64,000 nucleotides of DNA from Escherichia phage vB_EcoP-101114BS3, in the sequence record MZ234015.1; one strand, given 5' to 3'. The notes under the pieces were generated by a model, which made no database searches, was not told the DNA's origin, and saw only the letters and a program-made list of their open reading frames with translations. Within the stretch, counting starts at the first letter, position 1; each line of letters opens with the position of its first letter. Below are positions 22,590 to 54,265 of the stretch, in pieces. The translations under genes and the position numbers were made by a program.

Positions 22590-22805
22590 TTAGTAATGAA
22601 TCTTTTTATAAATCAGGTTGCTTCCACTTTCTGTTTCAATCCCTTTCTGGATTGTAATCTTAGAAGCACCGGTATTAGCAATTTTTAAAGCTCGTTTAAA
22701 GCGGCGAGCCTCTCTCCGTGTTGTGTATGAGGAGAAGCTAGGGATTGTACTATCAAAATTAAACCACTTAACTACCCAAAAAGTAATCCAAGGTTTCTTT
22801 TCCAT
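22590..22805 (-). CDS. Small basic protein, paralog family A (1 of 3)
   Basis: Shares W.V..W...T.QEAR..K...KI.I.K...Y pattern with 24670-24885 and 24885-25097. Confidence 0.5.
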   Translation of the reverse strand: MEKKPWITFWVVKWFNFDSTIPSFSSYTTRREARRFKRALKIANTGASKITIQKGIETESGSNLIYKKIHY

Positions 22806-23272: not shown

Positions 23273-23458
23273 TTATAGCATACAAAGAATAATAACAAGA
23301 GGTAGTGTTATAGCAAAATGTACCAGAACAACACTACCTAGCTTGATAGCTTTAACATCCTCTTCTGCTGGGTTTTCTTTAATTGCTAAATTTCGAGCTT
23401 TATATATAACAGTACCAACTATTAACGACCACACGGCCCACACAATCAGTGAAATCAT
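23273..23458 (-). CDS. Small two-TM membrane protein (tandem paralog)
   Basis: Shares VWSVW...KENP...IK.GS pattern with 23468-23689. Confidence 0.5.
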   Translation of the reverse strand: MISLIVWAVWSLIVGTVIYKARNLAIKENPAEEDVKAIKLGSVVLVHFAITLPLVIILCML

Positions 23459-23467
23459 ATCAAACCC

Positions 23468-23689
23468 TTATGCAGTCAACAGGTGGAGAAGGAAAGGAAT
23501 GACAACAGAGAAGACTACCAGAGCAATGCTGCCATGTTTAATGGGTTTAGCGTCATTCGGGTTCTCTTTAAGCATCTGTTTCTGAGCTACATAAACGATA
23601 CCGCCAACAAAAATTGCCCATACAGACCATACGATTGCTGAAAACATACTCATATCCTTATAAAGAAGTTCGCCCCACCTCTTGAACAA
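23468..23689 (-). CDS. Small two-TM membrane protein (tandem paralog)
   Basis: See 23273-23458. Confidence 0.5.
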   Translation of the reverse strand: MFKRWGELLYKDMSMFSAIVWSVWAIFVGGIVYVAQKQMLKENPNDAKPIKHGSIALVVFSVVIPFLLHLLTA

Positions 23690-23710
23690 AGAGACAGGGC
23701 GGAGGTTTGA

Positions 23711-24286
23711 TTAGTAAGACACATCACCACTGGAGTGGGACATGTTGCTCTTGACGAAGTAACAGAACTTGCCAAGACCTTCATTAATTTCTTGAAGCAT
23801 ACTCTGGTCCACTGGATAGGTGCACAAGTCTGAATCAAACTCATCCATCTTCTCAATGATACACATAAGAGTCATGCACATGTCGGAAAGCATACCGTCC
23901 ATGTCAAGATCAGCGTTACCTTCTCGGAACCAAGCATGACCTAAATAATTACTAGCAGTAGCATCCACTTTAACACAATGAAAGCGCATACGCTCTGCTA
24001 TTCGGTCGCCTGCCTCACGAGCATAATCTTCTAGTTCATCGAACATACCATGAACACCTTGGAAACCAGCTCCAGAGACGTTCCAGTGGTAGTTCTTTGC
24101 TTTGATGTGTAGAAGTTCAAGGTTAGCTTGCACACCACACAAGATGTGTTCTAAGCTGTTACCGCTAATCAGTTTATTCATTCCCTCAAGACGAGAGATA
24201 GAAGAGTCAGTAGCAGAGAATGGGTTGCTAGAACCCACTCGTGTTAGTTCTGGTAAGTCGAAGACATTATTATGCATTAGGTGCAT
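23711..24286 (-). CDS. Dps/ferritin-like protein
   Basis: YHWNVSGAGFQGVHGMFDELEDY...IAERM resembles the Dps ferroxidase-site region. Confidence 0.55.
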   Translation of the reverse strand: MHLMHNNVFDLPELTRVGSSNPFSATDSSISRLEGMNKLISGNSLEHILCGVQANLELLHIKAKNYHWNVSGAGFQGVHGMFDELEDYAREAGDRIAERMRFHCVKVDATASNYLGHAWFREGNADLDMDGMLSDMCMTLMCIIEKMDEFDSDLCTYPVDQSMLQEINEGLGKFCYFVKSNMSHSSGDVSY

Positions 24287-24617
24287 CCCCTTCTAAGTTA
24301 GTTGAATTAGCTACATTACGAGCAATGTTATCCATGACCTGCTGTGTAATAACAATGCAATTCTGAGGGTCTACTGATTTAGAACGCCCCATCTCAGGGT
24401 CATAGACTTTGACTCGCTTGGCTGTTGAGCCAGTAACTTGCAACACTTTGAGAAGATAGCCTTGGTTTCCAATAGACCATGCAACAACATCACGATTCTT
24501 GATATAACGACCAAGCATGTCACGATGATAGAACTGCTGCATAACTTTAGCTTTGCTAATCTCTTCAGATGGCGGGGCCACTTTACTCAAATCTAACATA
24601 ACTCTCTCCTGTTTCAT
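24270..24617 (-). CDS. Hypothetical protein
   Basis: 115-aa ORF in operon. Confidence 0.5.
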   Translation of the reverse strand: MKQERVMLDLSKVAPPSEEISKAKVMQQFYHRDMLGRYIKNRDVVAWSIGNQGYLLKVLQVTGSTAKRVKVYDPEMGRSKSVDPQNCIVITQQVMDNIARNVANSTNLEGDAPNA

Positions 24618-24669
24618 ACAATATTCTTATACTGTATATACATTTGAGAGTTATCATATCTACTACCAA

Positions 24670-24885
24670 CTAGTAATAAACCTTGCTGGATATGAATCCA
24701 GCACTGTTATGGATATTTTCAATCCAACGATGAATCTCCACCTTTTCAGCGATTCCTAAAGCTTTTGTAGCTTTTATAGTTTTCTTAGCAAGACGAGCCT
24801 CTTGTCTTGTGTTGAATAATTGAATACAATCACCACCAAGAGCTTTGTTAGCCCATTTAGTACGAACTGCCCATAATTTATCCAT
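24670..24885 (-). CDS. Small basic protein, paralog family A (2 of 3)
   Basis: See 22590-22805. Confidence 0.5.
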   Translation of the reverse strand: MDKLWAVRTKWANKALGGDCIQLFNTRQEARLAKKTIKATKALGIAEKVEIHRWIENIHNSAGFISSKVYY

Positions 24886-25097
24886 TAGTAATGTACCTTT
24901 CCGCTGATATAGAAACGACCTGATTTAAAGTCTTGAGCTTTGTGGATAGTGATCTTATTAATTGTGCTTTCACAACTTAATAAGAACTTCTTATGAGCGC
25001 GAGCTTCTTGACGGGTATTCCTAATACCCATTGACTCTGTACCACTGCTCCAGTGAATACGAACTACCCAACGTCTTTTCATTGTTCCAAACTCCAC
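24885..25097 (-). CDS. Small basic protein, paralog family A (3 of 3)
   Basis: See 22590-22805; tandem with the previous copy. Confidence 0.5.
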   Translation of the reverse strand: MEFGTMKRRWVVRIHWSSGTESMGIRNTRQEARAHKKFLLSCESTINKITIHKAQDFKSGRFYISGKVHY

Positions 25098-25293: not shown

Positions 25294-25827
25294 TTATACA
25301 CCCTTAGATGCAACTACACCATTACTGCCGTTGTATCGACCCTTCACTGCATAAGAGTCATCACCAGCGTGAGAGTGTTCGAACATAACCATTTGACCAA
25401 CACGCATCCCAGCACGAACTCGTAAGCTATGATTATGGGTAACGTTATGAAATTCAAAGGTTAGTTTACTGCTGTTAAACCCTGCATCAGCCCAACCAGC
25501 ATGGAGGTGGTTTAAACCACAACGAGCCATTGAGGAGCGAAGTACAAACAGGCTTGAGATGTTATCTGGAAGGTTAAACTCTTCCATTGAGTGCGCTAAG
25601 AAGAATTGCCCCGGAGTGATAACAATACCATCTTCAGGGATTTTTACTTCTTTCCACTTGAGGTTTTCTTTAGCATCAATGTCAACAATTCCGTCAGCCT
25701 GTTCTTCAACAAGGATAGTATCACCAATACGGATATCCACGCTAGCAGCGTTAACATATTTATGCTCCGCATCTAAAAAGCCATTATCAATAACGCTGTG
25801 TAATTCTTGAGAACCTAAAAGACTCAT
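25294..25827 (-). CDS. dcd: dCTP deaminase family protein
   Basis: FVLRSSMARCGLNHLHAGWADAGFNS...GMRVGQMVMFE matches the dCTP deaminase/dUTPase-fold signature. Confidence 0.75.
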   Translation of the reverse strand: MSLLGSQELHSVIDNGFLDAEHKYVNAASVDIRIGDTILVEEQADGIVDIDAKENLKWKEVKIPEDGIVITPGQFFLAHSMEEFNLPDNISSLFVLRSSMARCGLNHLHAGWADAGFNSSKLTFEFHNVTHNHSLRVRAGMRVGQMVMFEHSHAGDDSYAVKGRYNGSNGVVASKGV

Positions 25828-27287
25828 GAGTTTCTGTTTCCTTGTACAGATGATGCCAAATTATTAATCATGTTACGAGCTGTTTCACGAGATAGTGTAA
25901 CACCTGCTAAGTTGTTATGAAGCTCACCAGATAGCTCACGAGCAGCAGCTCGAAGTTCTGTACCAAGTGTAGTATCGGAGTGAGCCAAACCATTACGACG
26001 ACTATAAGGTCGAGGAGCTTCGTTAGCGTCATTAGCCAATGATGCAAAACCAATATGAGCAGCTTCACGAGACGCTATAGTTGACACTCGATCTTCCGTA
26101 GGGGTTGGCAAATCACCAACTTCTACACGTTCTATATCACCAGCACGTAGACCCTGAACGACTGAGCTTACTGTTTCCCATGAACGACGAGAACGCTGTA
26201 AATCACCCATTGACGGAGAAGAAGCAGGTCGAACAGTTACTCCACCTGTATCATGAGTGACATGCCATGTACGAGTATCCATTCCAGAAGAGCGTGCACT
26301 ACCAAAACTGCCAGTGAAAGTGTCACGAGGTGCCATTGTAGGAGGAACTGCGAATCTTTCCTGTTGCCAAGAATCGCGTCTGTTAGTTCCCGGAGTCCAA
26401 GGCTGCGTGATTGCTTCAGCACCTATAGTGGTTAATCCGCTAGACCATTCTGTCTGTAGGTTAACTTCCTCGTCCAGATAACTACGACCCCTTTCCTGAG
26501 GAATGTTTAATATAGTTTCCATCATCTTCAGGGTATAATGACGACGCTGATTCTGATATAAATTTACACCAGCCATAGGTCCAACTAAATCACTAATCAG
26601 GTGAACTTCTGGCTCACCGAAAGCTCCCATTGCAAGGTGCATATATTCGGTAGAACTGCTATAAACTGCAACAGTTGCTTCAGGCCACTTCTTGTGAACA
26701 TACTTCATTTCACGACCAGATACCACAGGAATGTCACGAGTGTATGACATTGCAAACAAACCTTCGTTTGACACATACATGTCATCAAGAGACATGAACC
26801 CCTGACAGATCATAGGAAAGCGACGGCTTAAAGTATCCATATCCAAAGGTAGATTAATCATCATCTGGATTTTAACTTGATCAATCTCAATTTCCAGAAT
26901 CTCTTGGAAAGTGAAAAGTGCTTCAGCGTAAGTTGTCCCACTAACAGGCTGAACTAGGCGAGATGTAGTTTGAAGCCCTTTACTCTCTGTCCAAGACAAG
27001 AAGTTGTCAAGGAACAGTGCAGCATTCATCACGTTAGCAGGGTTGTTTTCCTGACGGGTGTTCCAACGAAACCCTCCTTGGACTAGGAAGATATCCACAT
27101 CATTCGGAGTTCGGTTCTGGAAGAACGTATCACGGATAGCACCACCTGCAATAACAGGGTAGATACCATCAGGAACTACGTTGTCTCTGATCAGATTGCG
27201 AATCAGATCAAGCCCTACGCTGAGGGCTTCTCCTTCTTGAAGGTTTAATTCAGACAATGGAATCTTAATCATTTCTACATTTTCCAA
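25824..27287 (-). CDS. Nucleotidyltransferase (Pol-beta superfamily; CCA-adding / poly(A)-polymerase-like head) with long low-complexity C-terminus
   Basis: [14 protein letters not shown]...NDVDIFL matches the GGxVRD...DxD head-domain motif. Confidence 0.6.
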
Positions 27288-29642: not shown

Positions 29643-29849
29643 TTAGTAAAACGATCGTATTTCTTCCCACACATCATCTTGCAAGTTTCTAAAACCCTGC
29701 AAGGTTTGCTTTGTTCTGTGAATAAATTCTTCAGAGTGCTTATCAGGTGTGAGCATACTGACAAACTTTTCATAGCGATTAATCTTCCACCGCATCTTCA
29801 AGTAGTCAGATTCCAGCTTTCTTAACTTCTGCCTGTCAGTTACTGTCAT
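29643..29849 (-). CDS. Hypothetical protein
   Basis: Internal ATG at 29849 preceded by AGGTGAG; the longer ORF-track version (to 29945) overlaps the GGCT-like gene. Confidence 0.4.
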   Translation of the reverse strand: MTVTDRQKLRKLESDYLKMRWKINRYEKFVSMLTPDKHSEEFIHRTKQTLQGFRNLQDDVWEEIRSFY

Positions 29850-30267
29850 CCTTCTCACCTGCCAGATATGCTGTCCAGTCACCAGATTCAACCAGAACAT
29901 CTTGTTCTTCGTCGATGTGATAAATCCACGCTTCCACAGTTTCACCGCTGTCCAATAATACTGGAATCAGTGTACGCTTGTAAAAGGTGTATGGGTTATC
30001 ATTACCACGATGACCTTCCAGACCGTCATACGGACCTTCCAGACCAGCTTGGGTTGTTTCAAAGACTTCTACACGAACAGGCTTACCATTGCTGTCATGC
30101 TCCAAAGATACACTTGGGAAGTATGCTGTGCAATACTGATACAGGTTACAGTTGTTTACTGTCCACCCTTCACCAATAGACACACCACCTGCACGAGCAT
30201 TGATAGCGTGGTTGTGTTGACCTTTACGAAGAGAACCATACGTTGCAACTAATACTTTATCAGACAT
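29836..30267 (-). CDS. Gamma-glutamyl cyclotransferase-like (AIG2/GGCT fold) protein
   Basis: N-terminal VATYGSLRKGQHNH matches the YG[ST]L signature of GGCT-like proteins. Confidence 0.7.
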   Translation of the reverse strand: MSDKVLVATYGSLRKGQHNHAINARAGGVSIGEGWTVNNCNLYQYCTAYFPSVSLEHDSNGKPVRVEVFETTQAGLEGPYDGLEGHRGNDNPYTFYKRTLIPVLLDSGETVEAWIYHIDEEQDVLVESGDWTAYLAGEKDDSN

Positions 30268-30271
30268 TACA

Positions 30272-30469
30272 TTACCTTTTGTTTAAAATTTCTTTTGTAC
30301 AAGAAGTCCCGTTACACACGAGAACTGTTTGAGTTATAGAATCGACAACTGTTACATGGCTGCCGCATTGAGTTATGATTTGACCTCTCCCTGAATCTTT
30401 AGAGATGCATTCATCAGCGGCGATCGCTGACACACTGAATAAGGAGAGGAAAAATAGAATCTTTTTCAT
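30272..30469 (-). CDS. Small secreted Cys-rich protein
   Basis: Signal peptide MKKILFFLSLFSVSAIAA followed by 6 Cys in ~45 residues. Confidence 0.5.
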   Translation of the reverse strand: MKKILFFLSLFSVSAIAADECISKDSGRGQIITQCGSHVTVVDSITQTVLVCNGTSCTKEILNKR

Positions 30470-30475
30470 GGCTGC

Positions 30476-30892
30476 TTACCAATCATGTTGGAAACCAGAA
30501 TATCCAGAGAAGATGATTGATCGGATTGGCTTTTCAGGGAATCCTTCAAAACATCCCTTAATGGCTTTCTTGGTTTCATCAGAAATTGACTCTTTTTCAC
30601 CAAACCAATATTCTTCAAAAATATCAGAGAAGATATAAGTTCGGTATCTTTCCAAGTCATAAAAACCTTCCACTGCACTTGTAACAGCTCTACTAATTAC
30701 ACTTGAAGCTACAGGAAATAAGTCACCGTGTTCCAGAAACAAGCACCAACGATCAAAGAGAGGAATCTCTTCATCTTTCAGAAGACTTTCTAACTCTTCC
30801 TTTGCCTCTTTCTTGTGCTTCTCAAAGAGGTTTTTGGAATACTCTACATCTAAGATACGACTTTTAAACATATCCAGTTTATTATTAACCAT
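30476..30892 (-). CDS. Hypothetical protein
   Basis: 138-aa ORF in the cassette operon. Confidence 0.55.
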   Translation of the reverse strand: MVNNKLDMFKSRILDVEYSKNLFEKHKKEAKEELESLLKDEEIPLFDRWCLFLEHGDLFPVASSVISRAVTSAVEGFYDLERYRTYIFSDIFEEYWFGEKESISDETKKAIKGCFEGFPEKPIRSIIFSGYSGFQHDW

Positions 30893-30949
30893 TTTACAAC
30901 CTCTAGTTAAATTCGAACTAGCCTCCTCTTTCGAAGAGGCTAAAGCAAA

Positions 30950-31135
30950 TTATTCTACTTCGAAGTGTTTGATCACACCAGTCAGTACATCAGATTGGAA
31001 TGTACCCACTAGCTCTGTACCTCGGAAAAAGTTAACACTTGTTCCAAGTGATTCAAAGCGATCTGCTTGAATGTCCAGAGATTGAATATTTCCTTCTGCT
31101 GACATTGTACGAAACATGATTGTGTATTTATTCAC
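30950..31135 (-). CDS. Hypothetical protein
   Basis: 61-aa ORF. Confidence 0.4.
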   Translation of the reverse strand: MNKYTIMFRTMSAEGNIQSLDIQADRFESLGTSVNFFRGTELVGTFQSDVLTGVIKHFEVE

Positions 31136-31374
31136 AGACTCGTTACTCCCTTATCTGCTTGTGCAATTGCGATGATACGCTCAGCACATTCCATTGAATA
31201 CTTATCACCTCGTTTGAGGAAGGTGATGATTGCAGAGAACTGATTACCAATCATTCTCTTATTTGTGATACCAAACTCTTCACAGAGTTGGTTGATAGCT
31301 TTACGAGAGCCTACAATCAGAGGCTCTTTTTCTTCGGTCATTCCACGGCTGATCAAATCTTCGATAGACAACAT
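31132..31374 (-). CDS. Hypothetical protein
   Basis: 80-aa ORF with start/stop overlap to its neighbour. Confidence 0.45.
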   Translation of the reverse strand: MLSIEDLISRGMTEEKEPLIVGSRKAINQLCEEFGITNKRMIGNQFSAIITFLKRGDKYSMECAERIIAIAQADKGVTSL

Positions 31375-31400
31375 TACAAATTCCTTTTTGTTTAATTTAA

Positions 31401-32636
31401 TTACAGAGTTACTGCTACTTCGCTACCTTCAACATTGACAGACTCTAACTTGCGAGGGTTATGAATCTGGACTGGATTGACCGGAACGTTCCAACCACTG
31501 CGGTAGAAGTTACGACCATCACAGAACAAAATGACATTGGCAGACATTGCATTCGGTTGAAGGTTGTTGTGGACGTGACGGATATCTGCAATCCAGTAAC
31601 CACGAGACAAAGTGTAACCAGTAGGTGCATTACGAATAGTTTGAGTATTCATCTGACCTTCTAGCTGCATTTCTTCAGGAACTACATCTACCGAATCAAC
31701 CGGCTGTGCTACTTGTCCTTCCAGTGCAAAGTTTTCATCATCAGCACTTTCAATATCATCCACTAACTCACCGTCTCCATCTTCAATCGGAGTCTGGTAA
31801 ACCACTTTATACTGAGGAGTATAGAGAGGGTTCTGAGCTTTAACAAACTCAAGAATGTTATGACGGTAGGTATCCAGAGTTGTACCAGTCAGGCCCGGTG
31901 CTGTATTAACTTCCAGTACCCACGCTTCTTGACCTTTGGTGATAATATCAACTGCACCGAAATCCAGACCCATTGATTCAACAGCTTTCACTGCATTGAT
32001 CAGAGAGGCGTCATTCGGAGCATCTGTGAAGGAGCTTGAGTAAACCCAGCCAGTGTGGTGATTACGAATATCTTCACGATAGTTAGGGTCTTCGCGATAA
32101 CCATTGCGACGAATCTTCTTCTGAACATAGGTGATTACACCTTTGAACACATGGACACGCCACTCACGACGTGGGCCTTGAATGCCTTTAGTGTACAGTT
32201 CAGCTCGACCAAGACCATCACCCGGTTCTACAACAACAATGCCCGAACCAGAGTGACCAGTCAGCTCATGGCGCTCATACACAATATTACCAGTGTTTGA
32301 CCACTCTTGAGCAGTCTCTTGAACATCTGTGTATTCCACAGTTTTAACACCTGCTTGGTCCATCACGCTGAAAGCACGACGTTTGTTCGCTGCCATATGT
32401 AAGGCTGCGGTACGGTTAAGGACGGTTGCAGAACCAAAGAATGATTCAGGATAGCGACGGTTCCCGTAGTTAACAACCACATCACCTTCACGAGAACGCC
32501 AGCGGCTATTCTCTGAAAGAAGACCCATCACGTTAGCATTGATGCGTTCATCACGGATAGTATCACTGATAGCAGATACTAGAGCGTTAACAGAATCAGA
32601 CGGGCCATACGGAAGAACACGGATACGAGTAGTCAT
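31401..32636 (-). CDS. ATP-grasp ligase (RimK-like)
   Basis: GHSGSGIVVV (ATP-binding loop) and WVLEVNTAPGL motifs. Confidence 0.75.
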   Translation of the reverse strand: MTTRIRVLPYGPSDSVNALVSAISDTIRDERINANVMGLLSENSRWRSREGDVVVNYGNRRYPESFFGSATVLNRTAALHMAANKRRAFSVMDQAGVKTVEYTDVQETAQEWSNTGNIVYERHELTGHSGSGIVVVEPGDGLGRAELYTKGIQGPRREWRVHVFKGVITYVQKKIRRNGYREDPNYREDIRNHHTGWVYSSSFTDAPNDASLINAVKAVESMGLDFGAVDIITKGQEAWVLEVNTAPGLTGTTLDTYRHNILEFVKAQNPLYTPQYKVVYQTPIEDGDGELVDDIESADDENFALEGQVAQPVDSVDVVPEEMQLEGQMNTQTIRNAPTGYTLSRGYWIADIRHVHNNLQPNAMSANVILFCDGRNFYRSGWNVPVNPVQIHNPRKLESVNVEGSEVAVTL

Positions 32637-32638
32637 TT

Positions 32639-32869
32639 TTAGATACCTTTTAGTTTAAGAATTTCGTTACGACAGGATTGAATTTTAGCTTCGATTGCCC
32701 AATACTCAGCGAACATTTCGTCTTCTTGGGCATCGCTTGGAGAGTCGATTAAGTTAAAAGCAAACGGATACAGCTTTCGCTGCTCCGTTACCAGTTGTTG
32801 AAGTCGGAGTTGTTGATACTCCAGCATTGTCAGGTGAGGCTTAGCTCCCTTGCTTGACATGAGGCTCAA
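32639..32869 (-). CDS. Hypothetical protein
   Basis: 76-aa ORF. Confidence 0.45.
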   Translation of the reverse strand: MSLMSSKGAKPHLTMLEYQQLRLQQLVTEQRKLYPFAFNLIDSPSDAQEDEMFAEYWAIEAKIQSCRNEILKLKGI

Positions 32870-33074
32870 CTTTAATCCCCTTCATTTTAACATAGTCAGC
32901 CAACACGTTATTGATAACGGTTGGAAAAGGGATTTCTACTGGAGAGTCAACCAGCTTCCCAATACCTTCTTGCATCCACTTCTGGATTGCTCGGAGGTTA
33001 TCACATCCTGTGCTTGTCATCGGAATACGGCGGGTAGTTACCACGTTATCCAACATCAGTTTACGAACTTCCAT
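32841..33074 (-). CDS. Hypothetical protein
   Basis: 77-aa ORF. Confidence 0.45.
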   Translation of the reverse strand: MEVRKLMLDNVVTTRRIPMTSTGCDNLRAIQKWMQEGIGKLVDSPVEIPFPTVINNVLADYVKMKGIKVEPHVKQGS

Positions 33075-33085
33075 AACTATACCTC

Positions 33086-35089
33086 TTAGTGTTTACCTTT
33101 ACAGTAATCTGAATTACAGATCACCCTGTTTTCTTTGTTCAGTGAGCAAGTTTCTGCATCACGCCACGGAATTTGTTTATAACAGACTGCACAAAACCCA
33201 ATTGAAGTCCAGAGGGCTTTTGTAAACTCAGCTGTTCGTTGTCCATCGTAACTGACAACTGTTTTTCGGAGAGAGGTTGACTTTTCTGGAAATGTCTCCG
33301 CTTTCTCAGCGGGTACCTCCTTTGGGGCATTCTTTGGACCATAAACAGAGATGGCATAAGTATCACCACCACGTTTTTCCAAATACGAATTAGGAACATC
33401 TGCAAGTGTGATGTCCCCTGAACGTTTTGCTGAGCTGACCATTACAATCATACGGCTAAGCATACGTTCATCAACACGAACAGCTACTTCAGGACGACGT
33501 GGGTTGGTTGTGTCTACTGCTTTAGTCCAAATATAACCTTCAGATAGAGTAACATTCTTTACTTTATCTTTGATTTCTTTGGAGCAGATATAACAAACGT
33601 CTTCACCACGAAGTTTACTCATTTCGTTGTCAAACTCGAAATCAGTCTTGACTTCACCACAGATAGCACATACACCCAAAGGCACATCTTCTTCCTCTTC
33701 AGAGGTTTTAGATAACGCTTCGAAGCATTCTGGATGCCAGTATGCCTGATAAGCAAACACAGCCTTACGAGCATCTTTCCAGTCAATGTGCTTATCACAA
33801 CCACCACAGTCACCATGAGAGTGAGATTCCCAGAACTTACGAGTGACTTCTACACCATTCTTAGTGATGAAGGAGTCCTCTGCATCAAAAGGGATATCAT
33901 CATCAAAATCAGCAGTAGTGCTTTGAGGCTCCTTATCTGTAGCATCAACAAACAGCCCTGAAGTTAGTACGAGGCGAATCATACTGTCCACTTCGGAGAT
34001 ACAAGCAATCGTCCCGCGATATACTACCTTTGGGTTTTCAAGAGCCTTAAGATATTCATCTTTGGCTACGTTGTGAACATCCCCTTCGACATACTCTTGA
34101 GCTTTATCATCGTAGATGTAACCAACCATCTTACCACGATCTGTGTTGTTATAAGCATGGAACTCGTGAGGAATAATATCCACACGACCATCACGACGAT
34201 AAGGAAGACCGCGATCGGCAGCCAGTTTGTTCTGGTCTTCAATCGCTTTACGACGACGAATGTCTCCGCTTGTCACGCCGGGCTTGTCGTCTTTGTTTCC
34301 GTAAATGTCGCTTGTGCTGCTGCTTGATTTGTTTGTCTGTTGGTTCTGATAAAGAGAGGAGTTCGAGTAATAGCCGCCCCAGCGACTCGTTACCGTAAAA
34401 ACCGGAAGCGTGTGCTCCACCTCTTGAACCAGAGTCATACGACTGTTAGACACATCAAAGATATACTCAGTTCCCACTTTACATTCGAAGTGGTCATTGA
34501 TATGGTTCTTATGGGACTTAGAACGCTCTAAAATCCACATAAGCATAGCTTCTTCAGAAGCTCCAAACCAATCCAAACCACAGCGGGCTAGGTGGAAAGG
34601 ACGCTCATCATTACGGATAATGTGAAGTGTGTTGTCTTTAGCATCATGCCAAATCAAAGTGAATGCACCATCCAGTTTTTGGATAGTCTCTGCTGCTCCA
34701 ATGGTGTTAATTGAGTGGCAGATGTTTTCACTATCAACTTCGAAACGCTTACTGTCAGGAAGGAGATCTTGATCTAACAGGGTTCCATTATGAACCAGAG
34801 TAATATCCCCGTGAGTAAATGGGTGAGCATTTCGAGCATTGACAGCCCCACGAGTGGCATGTCGGCTGTGACCAACAATCCACGAAGGAGGAACTACGTA
34901 GTTCGTAAGCCCTTTGGTAATATTTGTATATTCTGTCTGGAGCATAAAAGCATAAGAAGGAAGAGCTTCTTTATAAGAGAAGACTTGCTTTTCACCTTTA
35001 CGCTGACCAAACACACCAGTTGAGTGCTGTCCACGGAAAACACCAGCATACAGAAGTTGGTTGAAAATGTCCAAATCTGCTGAGGTCAT
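33086..35089 (-). CDS. Class-II glutamine amidotransferase-like (Ntn-hydrolase) domain protein with C-terminal multi-CxxC zinc-ribbon region
   Basis: GHSRHATRGAVNARNAHPF and LVHNGTL match GATase-II motifs; C-terminus has CGGC, CAIC, CYIC, CAVC pairs; predicted N-terminus MTSADLD lacks the usual Cys2. Confidence 0.65.
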   Translation of the reverse strand: MTSADLDIFNQLLYAGVFRGQHSTGVFGQRKGEKQVFSYKEALPSYAFMLQTEYTNITKGLTNYVVPPSWIVGHSRHATRGAVNARNAHPFTHGDITLVHNGTLLDQDLLPDSKRFEVDSENICHSINTIGAAETIQKLDGAFTLIWHDAKDNTLHIIRNDERPFHLARCGLDWFGASEEAMLMWILERSKSHKNHINDHFECKVGTEYIFDVSNSRMTLVQEVEHTLPVFTVTSRWGGYYSNSSLYQNQQTNKSSSSTSDIYGNKDDKPGVTSGDIRRRKAIEDQNKLAADRGLPYRRDGRVDIIPHEFHAYNNTDRGKMVGYIYDDKAQEYVEGDVHNVAKDEYLKALENPKVVYRGTIACISEVDSMIRLVLTSGLFVDATDKEPQSTTADFDDDIPFDAEDSFITKNGVEVTRKFWESHSHGDCGGCDKHIDWKDARKAVFAYQAYWHPECFEALSKTSEEEEDVPLGVCAICGEVKTDFEFDNEMSKLRGEDVCYICSKEIKDKVKNVTLSEGYIWTKAVDTTNPRRPEVAVRVDERMLSRMIVMVSSAKRSGDITLADVPNSYLEKRGGDTYAISVYGPKNAPKEVPAEKAETFPEKSTSLRKTVVSYDGQRTAEFTKALWTSIGFCAVCYKQIPWRDAETCSLNKENRVICNSDYCKGKH

Positions 35090-35196
35090 GTTGCCGCCAG
35101 CTAATACGATACCACAAATTTTCTAATCCACCTGAAGGGTAAACCCTTTCATCTAATTAACCTTTAAATGCGCCCTGTATAAGAGCGCCCGTTGTG

Positions 35197-36297
35197 TTAC
35201 AGCAGTCGTTCTAATTGCATTTCCAGATGGTCTGGAATATAACCAGTGACGTTATCATCACTGCTACCTGATTCACGCATCAATGCAAACATGTGACGAA
35301 TTTCACGAACCGTTGCGATTCGAGTGCTTTCAATCTGAGGGGTGTAGTAGGTCATGATCTCTTCGTAGACACTGTTGGCATTACCGCGCACATATCCCAA
35401 GAAACCATAGAAGTCATTCATATCACGTAAGTTGATAAGGACTTCACCATCAGGGCCAGTCTGTTGCACACGAACACGACCAACCAAAGTTACAGATTGC
35501 TCACGACAGAAGAGAATATCACGAGCAAGACGATACCCTTCAGTGAGATCACTGTCTCTTGGAGTATAGTCTAGGGGTAGATGTTGAATCATAGGAGCGA
35601 AGCGCAGCTCATTCAACTTCTCAACATAAGCTTCATTGTCTAAATCTGCATATTCAACAGCCAGTTTCTTGAGAACCAAGAAGCGGTTGACCAGATTCAG
35701 AAGTTGGCTCTTTTTCCACTTCGGCTCTGAGATACGGAACTCAACAGAACCAAATTGAGATAGAGGCAAAAGATTAAGGGAGGTGTATTTATCCCAGCTA
35801 TTAACAAGAGAGTGGAAGAAAGCTTCCCCGTCTCGGTTGAACGCTGACGAAGCATTCATAACTTGTGCTTGAACGACAGCAAAAGCTGGACAGAAGTTGC
35901 TACGATAGCGATGGTATCCAGAACATTTGAACATCATCTTTTCATAGAACGTCCATCCAAGAATAACTTTCTTAAGGATATTACTATCAGCGTCACGCAT
36001 ATCCATATGAACGTGAGTGGAGCAGCGCCAAGTTCCCTCGGCTCCAGAATCCTGTACTGCTTCACTCAGATTGTTAATAGCACGAAGTAATTCTTCACCG
36101 TTGTAAGGTCGTGCACATACTAATTCACAACCATCACGAAGAGAGCCATCTTCAGTACAAACCCACATATCAGCGTCAATGTCAGTTGTACCTTCGACTT
36201 CTAACTCAATACCAACACCACACTGAAAAGCAATACTTGGATGCGGTTCAGATAAGCGAGGGTTACGGTATCCAAAAACTTGTGCTACGGTTGTCAT
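35197..36297 (-). CDS. Amidoligase-like (carboxylate-amine ligase, GCS2/glutamine-synthetase-like fold) protein
   Basis: GVGIELEVEG near the N-terminus and GSVEFRISEP later resemble amidoligase motifs. Confidence 0.55.
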   Translation of the reverse strand: MTTVAQVFGYRNPRLSEPHPSIAFQCGVGIELEVEGTTDIDADMWVCTEDGSLRDGCELVCARPYNGEELLRAINNLSEAVQDSGAEGTWRCSTHVHMDMRDADSNILKKVILGWTFYEKMMFKCSGYHRYRSNFCPAFAVVQAQVMNASSAFNRDGEAFFHSLVNSWDKYTSLNLLPLSQFGSVEFRISEPKWKKSQLLNLVNRFLVLKKLAVEYADLDNEAYVEKLNELRFAPMIQHLPLDYTPRDSDLTEGYRLARDILFCREQSVTLVGRVRVQQTGPDGEVLINLRDMNDFYGFLGYVRGNANSVYEEIMTYYTPQIESTRIATVREIRHMFALMRESGSSDDNVTGYIPDHLEMQLERLL

Positions 36298-36920
36298 AAT
36301 GATTCCACCAACTCTACATTATATGATGACAGGTCTGAAGAAATATGCTTGAACTTCTCCAGAAGGTTTAAAGATTGACGACCATTGTCGCCATAACCAG
36401 CTTCAAGAAGCACGTTTCCAACGTAAGCCCCTTTGTAATAAACTTTTCCATCGACAGGATTGATATAGATGAAACGAGTAACCAACCCTTCAAACTCTGG
36501 ATTAAACAGGTTATACACCAAATCACCCGGAATCGAACGTCCGAGAGAAGGTGGAGTACCACGAAGTTTATTCCCCATCAAGCCTTTAGCTCGCTGACGA
36601 ACAGGGTTGATATGGGTCCAGCTCACCACGTTATTACCATGCTGAAGGTATCCTACATCTGGAGACTCCAGAATGAGGCTGTGATCAAACACTGGGATAT
36701 TACTAACAATCTGACGTTCAAACTGACCTTCGGAGTTTTTAGTCCAGCGTTCCGCCTCAAACACTAAAGACATTTCAGCGTCGTGTGAGTAGTCGTCGAT
36801 ATCAAAGTTACCTTGCTGACGAACATCAAGCACATATAGAGGGAGGTTTTTACCATCAGGTGATCGCTGAGCAATCCATGTTCCACAATAATAGTGTTGA
36901 AAATCTCTTAACAAGCTCAC
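36294..36920 (-). CDS. Hypothetical protein (cassette member)
   Basis: 208-aa ORF, start/stop overlap with the amidoligase gene. Confidence 0.55.
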   Translation of the reverse strand: MSLLRDFQHYYCGTWIAQRSPDGKNLPLYVLDVRQQGNFDIDDYSHDAEMSLVFEAERWTKNSEGQFERQIVSNIPVFDHSLILESPDVGYLQHGNNVVSWTHINPVRQRAKGLMGNKLRGTPPSLGRSIPGDLVYNLFNPEFEGLVTRFIYINPVDGKVYYKGAYVGNVLLEAGYGDNGRQSLNLLEKFKHISSDLSSYNVELVESL

Positions 36921-36929
36921 AATATCACC

Positions 36930-37781
36930 TTATACAATCTGGAGTTTAGAGGAGAATTTATCTGCTTCTTTAACATCGTTACTGTTGATGATGTTGTGAA
37001 GCTTTTCAATTGGAAGGCGAGAGTGAAGTGACATCAATACTTCCATATCACAGCCTTGAACAACCTTATCAACTTGCTCATAAACAAACTTGCGGGTTGA
37101 CTTCTCGCCAATCCAGAAGTTAGAAAGAGAACGATATTCAATACCGTAATCCTTGTAACGAATGGCAGAAGCCTTTCCGTATAACTCTTTACGACGAGTG
37201 TCTTTATCCATGATTACAGCTGGCAAGGACAGGAAATAATCACACAACACACCCAACATCATTTGAGTTTGTCGAGTAATCTCTAAAGTCCCGGAGACAC
37301 CAAGGTGCACATGACCCCCAGCAGTACGCAAACCCTTATTAGTTGCGACCGGTGAAGGGTTCTTTTGTCCAGTGAAGGCATTGAAATCAGGAGTACAACC
37401 AAATACAAAGGCTGACGGATGGAAAGATTCAAGCTCTTCTGAAGTGAACACATGAGAGCTAATCCCAAGTGCTGCCTCCATGCCACGTTCATTGAGAACT
37501 TTGTTAGTCAGATCAATACCACGCTGAATGTTATCATCAAACGCTTCAAACCCTTCCTGTGGGTTAATATCAAACTCGGCCAGAACGTTGTCTTCTTGAA
37601 GACGAACATCAGGAGCCAGATCAATTTTATTGTCTTTAGAACAGCCCAGCTTACCAGCCACAGAGGTGATAATACCGGAAGCAGTACGAACAAACATTTC
37701 AGGGTCAGAGCCAATAAGGAAAGCGCGCTTAGTCATTGTAATACTCCACGAGTTCATCAAAAAGGGAAACAACACGAGCAC
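36930..37781 (-). CDS. Hypothetical protein (cassette member)
   Basis: 283-aa ORF; conserved-looking FLIGSDPEMF and GGHVHLG segments, function unknown. Confidence 0.55.
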   Translation of the reverse strand: MLVLFPFLMNSWSITMTKRAFLIGSDPEMFVRTASGIITSVAGKLGCSKDNKIDLAPDVRLQEDNVLAEFDINPQEGFEAFDDNIQRGIDLTNKVLNERGMEAALGISSHVFTSEELESFHPSAFVFGCTPDFNAFTGQKNPSPVATNKGLRTAGGHVHLGVSGTLEITRQTQMMLGVLCDYFLSLPAVIMDKDTRRKELYGKASAIRYKDYGIEYRSLSNFWIGEKSTRKFVYEQVDKVVQGCDMEVLMSLHSRLPIEKLHNIINSNDVKEADKFSSKLQIV

Positions 37782-38679
37782 CAGCTTCTTCTGGTGTCAT
37801 TGAGGAAGGTACTGCTTGCATCAGACGTTCGATAAAACTTTGAACAGTAATTCTGTCCATACGCTGATCTAATACTTCTCGCTTGTGACCTGCACAAGTT
37901 GACCAGAGACGTAACCACTCACTCATACTCTCATAATGGTCAGGGTCTTGGTCACGACGACGTGCCATACGACGGAGAACTCCATCATTATGGTTTCGTA
38001 CATAACCATCTCGGTTGTCATCAACACCGAATACATTCTGAACCCATACGTTTTCAGAAAATTCATCAGTGGTGCAAATTAATGGCAGAAATGCAATTGC
38101 ACTCATGTCGCCATCAAAATAAGTCGCTGCTGACTCATCGGTTGAGTCTACGTCATTACTATAACACCAGCGACCAAAGAAGTTACGACTTAAACCAGCT
38201 AAGCGTAGAGCTAAACCGATTCGTTGTCGCTTAAGCAACTCTTCCTTGTCTTGTACGCCTTCCTGAAGGAACTCCATTCCATTAAAATCACCATCCAAAT
38301 AGCTACGGATGGTCATTAGTCCAGTAAACACCTTGTCTGCTGGATGGTTTCGAAGGTTCACGGCAATAGAGTTCACCGAAGTGACAGAGAACATATCTTT
38401 ATAGCAAGACATTGAGTTAAAAATGTCTGTTGCTTCAACTAAAGCTCTTTCGATATCTTTAGCTGGTACGCCATAAAAATTGTGAGGCCAGAAGTTAATA
38501 ACTTCAATTTCTGAAGTTCTGTCACGAAGGCTTGTTCGGTTACGACTTTCACCGTTAATGTCTGTAACAGAATACATGTGCATACAGTTAAAAGTACCAA
38601 AGCAAGCTCTTCCTTTGAACACTGACTCACCGAAATCCTCTGCCGGTGTTACCGGAGCAATCGATGCGGAGATTGACAT
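37729..38679 (-). CDS. Hypothetical protein (cassette member)
   Basis: 316-aa ORF. Confidence 0.55.
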   Translation of the reverse strand: MSISASIAPVTPAEDFGESVFKGRACFGTFNCMHMYSVTDINGESRNRTSLRDRTSEIEVINFWPHNFYGVPAKDIERALVEATDIFNSMSCYKDMFSVTSVNSIAVNLRNHPADKVFTGLMTIRSYLDGDFNGMEFLQEGVQDKEELLKRQRIGLALRLAGLSRNFFGRWCYSNDVDSTDESAATYFDGDMSAIAFLPLICTTDEFSENVWVQNVFGVDDNRDGYVRNHNDGVLRRMARRRDQDPDHYESMSEWLRLWSTCAGHKREVLDQRMDRITVQSFIERLMQAVPSSMTPEEAGARVVSLFDELVEYYND

Positions 38680-38687
38680 ATTCGCCT

Positions 38688-39905
38688 CTATTTATTAAAG
38701 AATAATTTTTCCATAATGGTTTCCCACTCTTCTGAGGGGAGGGTTGAGAACCCGTTTCCGTGAAGCCTGTTTGTCATGCAACTAATAATATTGTACATGT
38801 TGTAGCTTCGGGTGGATTCTGTTCCATTGTTCCAGTTATAACCGAAAACAATTTTATCGAAGGAGGTTTTATCCGTAGTTACTTCTCGGATGAACTCAAC
38901 CAAGAGCGATTTCTCTGTGATGACCGCACGTTCACCATCTGGCAGATTACAATACTGAGGAAGAAGAATTGGTAAGAACATCGAATTGTTCACTCGACAA
39001 TCACGAACATCTTCACTGCGATAGATTAGGCTTGAGAAGTCTTCATCACGCAGGTGTCCTTCACCTTCAGTGTATTCACACTGTCGCCATTTGGTCTGAC
39101 GAGGTTCAATCATTGTACTACCAACGCCTACTGTATACAGAGACGCTTGGAAGATACACGAGTCGTAATCATTCCCTGTTAAAGCAACTTGCTCATTGCC
39201 GAACACATCCACTGAAGAGTTAATCAGTCGGCTGAATGCAAGAGAGGCTAGTGGAGACCAACCTTTCTTATACATCTTGTTCAGCATTTCATACACAGCA
39301 GATTTTTCATCATCTGTATAGAATGTACGATTCAGCATCAGATAGAACAGAGCGCGATCAGCAGGACAACCATCAGTACAAACACCCATGAATCCTACTT
39401 CATGCCATACCAGACATGAGTCAGAATCTTTATCCATGAATGCTTCAAAGGCTTCCATTACAGCCCTGTCAGTAACATCAGGACGGTTGTTTTCTTCTGC
39501 CCATGTTTCTACATGAGAAGGAGGACGAGGGTCTCCATTCTCCACCCCTTCGCGGAAATATTGAGTGGTAATAGGCTTTTTATCACCATAACGTTTTACA
39601 CCATAAGCGGGAAGGTGTGTACCAGAGTTCCAGATGTACTTAATTTCGGACATAGGCATCATGTTTTCGAGAACGTTCTCTTCAGCAGTGCCTTGACGAA
39701 CCATCATATTTTCACTCCACACCTTAATGCGGATATTCCAGCCGTAGTTGCTGTCATACGTGTTATAATAATCAGGATCACCATCTTCATCTTCATCATA
39801 ATCACCACCCTGATAGTAACCTGCTTTCAGGAAACCATAACAAGGAGGCCAGACGGTTACAACATCATCTGATTCTTTCCAGCTTTGAAGTGTTACAGGG
39901 AACAT
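38688..39905 (-). CDS. Hypothetical protein (cassette member)
   Basis: 405-aa ORF with acidic Asp/Tyr-rich N-terminal segment. Confidence 0.55.
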   Translation of the reverse strand: MFPVTLQSWKESDDVVTVWPPCYGFLKAGYYQGGDYDEDEDGDPDYYNTYDSNYGWNIRIKVWSENMMVRQGTAEENVLENMMPMSEIKYIWNSGTHLPAYGVKRYGDKKPITTQYFREGVENGDPRPPSHVETWAEENNRPDVTDRAVMEAFEAFMDKDSDSCLVWHEVGFMGVCTDGCPADRALFYLMLNRTFYTDDEKSAVYEMLNKMYKKGWSPLASLAFSRLINSSVDVFGNEQVALTGNDYDSCIFQASLYTVGVGSTMIEPRQTKWRQCEYTEGEGHLRDEDFSSLIYRSEDVRDCRVNNSMFLPILLPQYCNLPDGERAVITEKSLLVEFIREVTTDKTSFDKIVFGYNWNNGTESTRSYNMYNIISCMTNRLHGNGFSTLPSEEWETIMEKLFFNK

Positions 39906-53960: not shown

Positions 53961-54180
53961 CTACCAGTCTAATGATACATACATCAATAATCCACTCATG
54001 AAACATTAACATAGGTTATTACTATTAAACTTGGGGTAGTGTGAGGATTGTTATAATTGCATGGTGTTACCATTACTAACCTCACTATGATAGCCCTTAC
54101 TATTAGCCCTCTTATTATCACCCCTTAACAGTACATCAGAGTCTAGCCTTTCATCCTTCCTTAACATGAGTAGAAGAAAT

Positions 54181-54265
54181 ACGGGTGGGATATTACTGGT
54201 TAGATATACATGGGTAAATAATGCATGTGTAATATCAATGGGTAGGGTATTTATGGGTAGGGATA
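54181..54265 (+). repeat. ATGGGT(A/G)-type direct-repeat cluster II
   Basis: ACGGGTGGGATA, CATGGGTAAATA, AATGGGTAGGGTAT, TATGGGTAGGGATA in 85 bp. Confidence 0.55.

Follow-up and report, generated by a model that had tools for sequence, protein, structure and literature searches.

A Dps-family mini-ferritin encoded in the second gene of a two-gene middle unit of a phiEco32-like Escherichia podophage

INTRODUCTION

Dps-family proteins have been reported on several occasions among the podophages related to phiEco32. RefSeq describes the product of gene 67 of phiEco32 (gp67) as a "DNA binding protein, member of the Dps family," while the description of phage SU10 (2014) placed CDS67, which harbors a DPS domain, and CDS68 among the eight middle genes common to the five C3 phages sequenced at that time, with CDS68 being the gene which opens the middle genes. 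Mass spectrometry (MS) performed as part of the same study detected CDS67 (6 peptides, 35.8% coverage) in a PEG-precipitated lysate, in which the DNA polymerase and thioredoxin were also present. Because the sample was only PEG precipitated and contained these two proteins, its detection shows expression, i.e., that the SU10 orthologue is made during infection, rather than virion association. In the available portions of the main text and supplements of a cryo-electron microscopy (cryo-EM)/MS study of SU10, in which major gel bands only were analyzed, the Dps protein is unmentioned. In the case of Proteus phage Privateer (2021), a Dps-family protein was identified in CsCl-purified particles, and its function was stated to be unverified.

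The identification of these phage proteins as Dps is thus already present in the literature and databases, and a literature search found no phage Dps characterized by biochemical or genetic means. The present analysis adds the correction of an "integrase" label and of an unsupported "DNA-binding" label, the delineation of a two-gene unit extending from promoter to terminator, and the description of a coupled basic neighbor, nonconserved pore residues, and a lineage-specific N-terminal extension.

RESULTS AND DISCUSSION

Coding sequence and source of the Dps gene

The window, i.e., the whole stretch of DNA analyzed here (64,000 nt), spans the ends of the linear record NC_070982.1, and the region of interest is 100% identical to that of Escherichia phage vB_EcoP-101114UKE3 (NC_070982.1), a prolate C3-morphotype podophage of the genus Suseptimavirus (Gordonclarkvirinae) and a relative of phiEco32. 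An initial sequence-only reading of positions 23711 to 24286 had given no strand; the strand is minus, on which the open reading frame (ORF) list contains an unbroken ORF of 191 aa across this interval. Sequence inspection located a Shine-Dalgarno element, GAAGGGG, immediately adjacent to the ATG at 24286, and a second ATG, at 24277, follows this element at a distance of 9 nt and corresponds to the RefSeq start. On the basis of this spacing and the RefSeq start, 24277 was taken as the start of the gene, and its probable product is a protein of 188 aa encoded by positions 24277 to 23711. Residues are numbered from this start throughout, and the addition of 3 gives the numbering of the 191-aa ORF. 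The ORF corresponds to PQC43_gp069 of NC_070982.1, whose product is there named "integrase."

23711..24277, minus strand: phage mini-ferritin gene of the Dps family, 188 codons and a stop, as defined by the ORF list, ribosome-binding site spacing, RefSeq coordinates, and Pfam, PHROG, and PDB matches.

Sequence profiles and predicted fold identify a Dps-family protein

The sequence-only reading had proposed a Dps/ferritin-like protein on the basis of a HWNV.G..F...H..FDE...IAER motif, which is present in the ORF as ...NYHWNVSGAGFQGVHGMFDELEDYAREAGDRIAERM..., and had put forward an HMM search and a four-helix-bundle prediction as means to verify this identity. Significant Dps/ferritin profile matches were obtained. 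Pfam PF00210 (Ferritin) was matched above its cutoff in a Pfam search (E value of 7e-8; 32.9 bits against a gathering cutoff of 24.5), this single-sequence match spanning residues 59 to 102 only, while PHROG 3636 was matched with an E value of 1e-52 and a phmmer search against solved proteins retrieved more than 50 solved Dps proteins (best E value of 7e-10). A phage-family profile, built from 26 phage homologues and run against the PDB, matched Bacillus anthracis Dlp-2 across the whole domain (E value of 5e-19; profile positions of about 31 to 175), as well as Staphylococcus aureus Dps, MrgA, Mycobacterium smegmatis Dps2, and Escherichia coli Dps (1e-8).

The AlphaFold2 (AF2) monomer model (mean pLDDT of 83, with a core above 90) is a four-helix bundle with a short BC helix, the helices being located at residues 42 to 66 (A), 72 to 99 (B), 108 to 113 (BC), 126 to 151 (C), and 155 to 178 (D). 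The best 50 matches in a Foldseek comparison of this model with the PDB were all Dps, with TM scores to target of 0.8 to 0.9. The proposed identity is thus upheld by sequence profiles, by the predicted fold, and by the complete conservation of the ferroxidase ligands detailed below, which together confirm, at the level of sequence and structural model, that the ORF encodes a Dps-family mini-ferritin with the Dps subunit fold.

Two other assignments were discarded. The designation "integrase," which is carried by RefSeq record NC_070982.1 and many related records, derives from the product name in GenBank/RefSeq records only; no integrase or recombinase Pfam match was obtained even at an E value of ≤1, Ferritin being the sole significant Pfam match, the fold is that of a Dps four-helix bundle, and the phages are virulent. 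In the absence of a recombinase domain and in view of the wrong fold, this label is rejected outright as a propagated annotation error. A 24-mer ferritin or bacterioferritin was likewise rejected, as the sole E-x-x-H of the protein is at position 54, helix C being devoid of one, and its model has no fifth C-terminal helix. The 50 best Foldseek matches belong to the Dps family and not to the 24-mer ferritins.

The NCBIfam Dps equivalog models NF006975, NF041388, and NF052461 were missed by a wide margin (34.7 versus 114, 31.1 versus 170, and 17.4 versus 300 bits, respectively). Since these scores lie far under the cutoffs, the phage Dps is not an equivalog of the cellular Dps proteins which the models describe, and it represents a separate phage lineage. 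When a set holding one genome for each bacterial species was scanned, no close bacterial relatives turned up, and the best match in this set, at 43%, was to a 568-bp scaffold which is probably phage contamination. Recent capture of a host dps gene is rejected, since E. coli Dps is about 19% identical to the phage protein and close bacterial relatives are lacking in this one-genome-per-species set; judged from these sequence comparisons, the phage Dps is an old, phage-specific lineage.

A conserved ferroxidase center and nonconserved pore residues

The residues predicted to form the ferroxidase center are located between the end of helix A and helix B.

23984..24088, minus strand: ferroxidase-ligand segment, residues 64 to 98 (end of helix A to helix B), with H64, W65, H76, D80, D91, and E95.

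These six residues align one to one with H51, W52, H63, D67, D78, and E82 of E. coli Dps and with H31, W32, H43, D47, D58, and E62 of Listeria innocua Dps, the two reference sequences having been checked as identical to PDB entries 1f30 and 1qgh. All 26 phage homologues, down to 39% identity, retain the five ligands and the neighboring Trp unchanged, as do the homologues of Salmonella phage 7-11, Proteus phage Privateer, and Aeromonas phage LAh_6. By homology, H64, H76, and D80 would be contributed by one subunit and D91 and E95 by its two-fold partner, and the conservation of both halves of this shared site implies that at least a two-fold Dps dimer would be formed.

The acidic residues of the three-fold iron-entry pore are not conserved in the phage Dps: the positions equivalent to D121, D126, and D130 of L. 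innocua Dps are, respectively, variable (Asp in 9 of the 26 clade members), Pro (25 of 26), and Ser or Asn (26 of 26). Because of these replacements, iron entry in the phage protein may be different or impaired. A neighboring Asp within a P-V-D-Q motif is common in the phage clade, and a modified pore is possible. The loss of these residues does not exclude the protein from the Dps family, as bona fide Dps proteins differ in this respect.

Comparison with the phiEco32 gene gave a dN/dS ratio of 0.056 overall and 0.037 for the core, showing the core to be under strong purifying selection at the sequence level.

Charge and N-terminal extension

The phage Dps is acidic, with a pI of 4.79 and a net charge of -14. 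Residues 1 to 45 of the 191-aa ORF include one Lys and two Arg, the C-terminus (...SNMSHSSGDVSY) contains zero basic residues, and the Lys/Arg-rich N- or C-terminal tail of the DNA-binding Dps subclass (E. coli Dps type) was sought in the sequence and not found. Because the protein is acidic and both of its tails are nonbasic, the label "DNA-binding" is unsupported by the sequence, and database labels to this effect are inherited from the family name. The suggestion of the sequence-only reading that a phage-borne Dps could alter the nucleoid state, like a DNA-binding reading in general, is weakened by the net charge of -14 and the lack of a basic tail.

The helical core is preceded by an N-terminal extension.

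24152..24277, minus strand: N-terminal extension, residues 1 to 42, nonbasic and specific to the Gordonclarkvirinae-like lineage.

This extension was modeled by AF2 at a pLDDT of 41 to 58 with a single predicted helix (residues 26 to 38), carries a semiconserved R-L-[ED]-x-M motif, in which R29 and M33 are at least 90% conserved, and is absent from the homologues of 7-11, Privateer, and LAh_6. Relative to phiEco32, its dN value is 0.37 against 0.065 for the core, i.e., it evolves about six times faster. The full protein contains 6 Cys and 12 Met. The clade is unusually Cys rich (3 to 10 residues, with 2 in its most divergent member) and Met rich (9 to 15 residues, with 4 in that same member), and the Dps proteins of E. 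coli and L. innocua have zero Cys.

Gene neighborhood and the two-gene unit

The sequence-only reading had located the gene in a replication module, and this was correct: the gene lies within a leftward block of middle genes, among genes for replication and nucleotide metabolism, the assignment as middle genes being made by homology to the work on SU10 and phiEco32. Within this block, genes encoding a primase/helicase, an exonuclease subunit, a nucleotidyltransferase, and a dCTP deaminase (DCD) are located upstream of the Dps gene, and those encoding thioredoxin, ThyX, PhoH, and the DNA polymerase are located downstream. A setting among nucleotide-metabolism genes (thioredoxin, ThyX, DCD, PhoH, or NrdD/NrdG) was apparent in every lineage examined. 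Searches of the defense and antidefense libraries returned zero matches, and an Rfam search across the window returned one tRNA elsewhere and nothing else.

The gene directly upstream of that encoding Dps is the orthologue of phi32_68, and the two genes are flanked by a promoter element and a terminator-like hairpin.

24637..24645, minus strand: AAATGTATA, a match to P68, a middle promoter dependent on the phiEco32 sigma factor (gp36), in the intergenic spacer 5' of the two-gene unit.

24270..24599, minus strand: phi32_68 orthologue, 109 aa, PHROG 10984, with an 8-nt overlap between its stop and the Dps start.

23671..23701, minus strand: intrinsic-terminator-like hairpin with a 13-bp stem, 7 of whose pairs are G-C, and a T-rich tract after it, starting 10 nt past the Dps stop.

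The P68 element is part of a 35-nt block, TTGGTAGTAGATATGATAACTCTCAAATGTATATA, which recurs unchanged ahead of gene 68 in phiEco32; the element is listed as "aAATGTATA = P68" in Table S3 of PMC8948821, which also names gene 68 among the genes downstream of gp36-dependent promoters. The hairpin has a predicted RNA folding energy of -17.8 kcal/mol (z = -2.0), and its stem is kept in phiEco32, where the loop differs. Dps is shown to be the second cistron of a unit composed of a P68-type promoter, the gene for a small basic protein predicted to form a beta-barrel, the Dps gene, and a terminator.

PHROG 10984 has no known function assigned, and no Pfam, NCBIfam, or PADLOC match was obtained for the phi32_68-like protein. 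It is basic in all lineages (pI of 8.8 to 9.7), as opposed to the acidic Dps, and 53 of its 109 positions are invariant, a level of conservation which exceeds that of Dps. Its AF2 model (pLDDT of 66) consists of a helix, a small five-stranded beta-barrel, and a second helix, and resembles Tudor/SH3/KOW-like structures with matches that are nonsignificant (best E value of 2.6e-3). The phi32_68-like gene is found directly 5' of the Dps gene, with overlapping stop and start, in Gordonclarkvirinae, Privateer, LAh_6, and a 100-kb metagenomic phage contig; the tblastn matches to the two proteins are less than 110 bp apart in Cronobacter phages and other Aeromonas phages, and the two genes are separated by 1.35 kb in 7-11 and SE131. 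Their distributions mirror each other in the phage database, with 130 records of the phi32_68-like protein against 134 of the Dps clade.

A profile search of 1.84 billion representatives retrieved 32 small stand-alone relatives or clusters of the phi32_68-like protein and, within that set, no informative fusions. Some of the distant relatives carry DUF7205 and adjoin genes for a dCTP deaminase/dUTPase, a ribonucleotide reductase (RNR)-like ATP-cone protein, or PhoH, with no adjacent Dps gene, from which it follows that the protein is not exclusively a partner of Dps. It is treated here as a protein of the nucleotide-metabolism module whose translation in these phages is coupled to that of Dps, and not as a proven partner.

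Proposed role of the phage Dps and alternative explanations

We propose that the phage Dps probably acts in the detoxification of Fe2+ and H2O2 during phage dNTP synthesis and replication, affording chemical protection as a cage. This proposal fits the predicted intact catalytic site and is in keeping with the protection from oxidative damage, or altered host iron state, suggested by the sequence-only reading. Subunits would pair such that H64, H76, and D80 of one and D91 and E95 of the other form di-iron sites, and the resulting dimers would probably build a 12-mer cage which oxidizes Fe2+, preferably with H2O2, and stores Fe3+. Both Fenton reactants would in this manner be removed while the phage machinery for dNTP synthesis and replication is running, which comprises ThyX, thioredoxin, dCTP deaminase, and the DNA polymerase, with an anaerobic RNR in relatives. 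ThyX-type flavoenzymes can leak H2O2. The presence of thioredoxin/glutaredoxin, ThyX, and dCTP deaminase genes beside Dps is consistent across lineages, to which relatives add an anaerobic RNR and its Fe-S activase. Protection would be chemical, as opposed to the coating of DNA, given the strong acidity of the protein and its lack of a basic tail, as is the case for Dps of the L. innocua type.

Why such a phage would carry its own copy may relate to host shutoff. The gp79 protein of phiEco32 inhibits transcription by the sigma70 holoenzyme in vitro and "may be responsible for" host shutoff (PMC8948821); on this basis, a phage dps copy is plausible in phiEco32-type phages, as gp79 may shut off host transcription, in which event host dps would not be induced and the phage copy would be useful. 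The rationale is weakened by phage 7-11, which is without gp79 and host shutoff, yet has a Dps gene (PMC8948821). The presence of the Privateer orthologue in CsCl-purified virions also counts against a purely cytoplasmic antioxidant role, which would not predict it.

That same finding is an argument for the protein being a structural or internal part of the prolate capsid, packaged in it or bound to it, possibly with the N-terminal extension as a targeting segment. The conservation of the gene across all C3-morphotype podophage lineages searched, and the occurrence of Dps-fold domains inside larger proteins of uncultured phages that are named "prohead protease," point in the same direction. 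However, an abundant iron-loaded cage could co-band with phage in CsCl, the Privateer protein itself is without the extension, and the gene is a middle gene of the replication module and not a late gene. The SU10 detection came from the merely PEG-precipitated sample with its DNA polymerase and thioredoxin, and the available portions of the SU10 cryo-EM/MS study are silent on the protein, though that study was confined to major gel bands. Virion association is, on balance, improbable. It is quite unlikely, too, that the cage, in place of an antioxidant role, acts mainly as an iron buffer or reservoir for iron-dependent enzymes (host or phage ribonucleotide reductases or the NrdG Fe-S activase) while dNTP synthesis surges. 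The Dps gene is consistently found amid dNTP-synthesis genes, adjoining NrdG/NrdD/NrdR-like genes in LAh_6 and an NrdD-like fragment in Privateer and lying 2.6 kb upstream of NrdD in the 100-kb metagenomic phage, and the ferroxidase site is intact; on the other hand, the window phage has no RNR gene within the 32 kb of annotated sequence that surround the locus, and cellular Dps proteins are primarily detoxifiers with small iron cores. Iron supply and detoxification are not mutually exclusive.

A role in which the cage binds phage or host DNA, possibly via the basic upstream protein or the N-terminal extension, and either condenses it, shields it (for instance from nucleases and restriction enzymes), or remodels the host nucleoid is considered unlikely. 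The labels that read "DNA-binding protein" would favor it, but they come from the family name and not from tests, and the window Dps itself carries a net charge of -14 and two nonbasic tails, even though short Arg/Lys-containing N-termini are present in the 7-11 and Privateer homologues. The contrast between the basic neighbor (pI of 8.8 to 9.7) and the acidic Dps, whose genes overlap, is suggestive, as, weakly, is the Tudor/SH3/KOW-like barrel of that neighbor, a fold which often binds nucleic acids; against this, the fold match is nonsignificant (best E value of 2.6e-3; pLDDT of 66), and distant relatives of the neighbor adjoin DCD, RNR, or PhoH genes without Dps. E. coli Dps is known to block restriction endonucleases and not RNA polymerase (review PMC8632087), and the resistance of Gordonclarkvirinae to restriction-modification (RM) systems is unexplained (PMC11990801), but the product of a middle gene would be made too late for incoming DNA. 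A combined scheme, whereby a DNA- or capsid-associated cage acts together with the coupled basic beta-barrel protein to shield the phage genome, could aid the RM resistance of Gordonclarkvirinae and explain the detection in Privateer virions, and is deemed highly improbable. Detoxification of Fe2+ and H2O2 remains the role which we favor.

Significance

A mini-ferritin which is, by sequence, catalytically intact and under strong purifying selection is retained, as part of a two-gene middle unit of its own, by all of the prolate C3-morphotype podophage lineages searched. The family is an ordinary one in a mildly intriguing setting, and the system is experimentally tractable: they are candidate therapeutic phages, and infection of E. 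coli K-12 derivatives by some of them has been known since 2025 (BASEL collection), such that a knockout is now easy and would tell whether lytic phages must keep iron and peroxide chemistry under control inside the cells they infect. Correction of the widespread "integrase" label is also of practical value, as this name could cause virulent phages to be misflagged as temperate during therapy screening.

Comparison with known systems

The direct orthologues of the gene are those encoding phiEco32 gp67 (phi32_67) and SU10 CDS67, with 84% amino acid identity between the window copy and phi32_67. The likeness extends to the position after the gene 68 orthologue, the P68 element, and the terminator stem; nothing substantive differs, the window copy being a Suseptimavirus gene with the wrong name "integrase."

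Among solved structures, the closest are M. smegmatis Dps2 (2Z90/4M35) and B. anthracis Dlp-2 (1JIG), which share identical ferroxidase ligands with the phage protein and superimpose with TM scores to target of 0.83 to 0.91 and a root mean square deviation of 1.2 to 2.4 Å over about 140 residues. Sequence identity is 24 to 26%, and the phage protein differs in its 42-residue nonbasic extension, its Cys and Met richness, and its lack of acidic pore residues. E. coli Dps (1DPS/1F30) resembles the phage protein in family, fold, and catalytic ligands, but shares about 19% identity with it in a structural alignment and binds DNA via a Lys-rich N-terminus (K5, K8, and K10) which the phage Dps does not possess. 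L. innocua Dps (1QGH), which does not bind DNA, has the same ligands, a comparable pI (4.87 versus 4.79) and net charge (-12 versus -14), and no Lys-rich tail; it differs in that the equivalents of its D121, D126, and D130 are variable, Pro, and Ser or Asn in the phage clade, and in that the phage protein additionally carries the N-terminal extension. L. innocua Dps is the best model for the probable action of the phage Dps, namely, chemical protection with no coating of DNA.

Product name of the phage Dps gene

The gene encoding the phage Dps mini-ferritin (23711..24277, minus strand) carries the product name "integrase" in RefSeq/GenBank (PQC43_gp069 of NC_070982.1, the RefSeq record of Escherichia phage vB_EcoP-101114UKE3), and among the listed relatives about half use this name as well, including IME267, MLP3, ES17, and EcoN5. 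The name is a propagated error, which could cause virulent phages that are candidates for therapy to be wrongly marked as temperate.

Gene neighborhood and genome ends

The genes considered alongside the Dps gene are as follows.

22590..22805, 24670..24885, and 24885..25097, all minus strand: three paralogous genes, ~70 aa, PHROG 4939
23273..23458 and 23468..23689, minus strand: two tandem paralogous genes, ~60 aa, both PHROG 9296
24270..24599, minus strand: small basic protein of 109 aa, phi32_68 family, PHROG 10984
25294..27287: nucleotidyltransferase and dCTP deaminase (DCD) genes
About 29836..39905, minus strand: gamma-glutamyl cyclotransferase, aminotransferase, and COOH-NH2 ligase genes (RefSeq names)
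43941..44016, minus strand: single tRNA-Arg gene, anticodon TCT (Rfam, 70.8 bits, and ARAGORN)

The phi32_68-family gene is translationally coupled to the Dps gene, and its product, for which structural modeling predicts a small beta-barrel with helices on either side, is more conserved than Dps itself. Across the phage database, the occurrence of this family mirrors that of the phage Dps clade, while its remote relatives, in which DUF7205 is present, are located beside DCD, RNR, or PhoH instead. A thioredoxin gene is a further conserved neighbor of the phage Dps gene.

Immediately downstream of the Dps terminator lies the PHROG 9296 gene pair, whose products are putative small membrane proteins because each contains two hydrophobic stretches. 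The PHROG 4939 paralogues, which flank the Dps unit at dispersed positions to its left and right, share 32 to 40% identity, a common T-R-x-E-A-R-x-x-K motif, and a C-terminal end of the form K-[VI]-[HY]-Y.

The nucleotidyltransferase and DCD genes are suspected in the BASEL paper of specifying an unknown DNA modification behind the restriction-modification resistance of this group. The genes listed at about 29836..39905 are positioned upstream of the replication genes. At about 54146..54200, the window passes from the right terminus of NC_070982.1, a linear record, into its left terminus; position 1 of that record corresponds to window position 54146, whereas joining the two ends directly would place it about 55 bp later. 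This offset suggests that a terminal duplication was collapsed or that the source assembly was circularly permuted.

Dps-fold domains and composition of the phage Dps clade

Outside the window, a Foldseek search against BFVD placed Dps-fold domains within much longer proteins from uncultured Caudovirales, which are annotated either as "prohead protease" (lengths of 333, 432, and 763 aa) or as "DNA-binding protein Dps" (290 to 679 aa), and also identified the fold in Gp346 of Bacillus phage G and in Lactobacillus phages LP65 and Semele. A prohead protease-Dps fusion would suggest that Dps is capsid internal in some phages. In a scan of one genome per bacterial species, the sole "bacterial" sequence encoding a Dps of the phage type, with 43% identity across residues 46 to 178, was NZ_JANLCJ010000643.1, a 568-bp orphan scaffold of Herbiconiux daphne, which probably represents phage contamination of the assembly.

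In the alignment of 26 phage homologues, members of the clade are unusually rich in both Met (9 to 15 per protein; 4 in the most divergent member) and Cys (3 to 10; 2 in the most divergent member), with M97, M129, M133, and M160 being invariant or nearly so. In contrast to this Cys-rich phage clade, the Dps proteins of E. coli and L. innocua contain no Cys.
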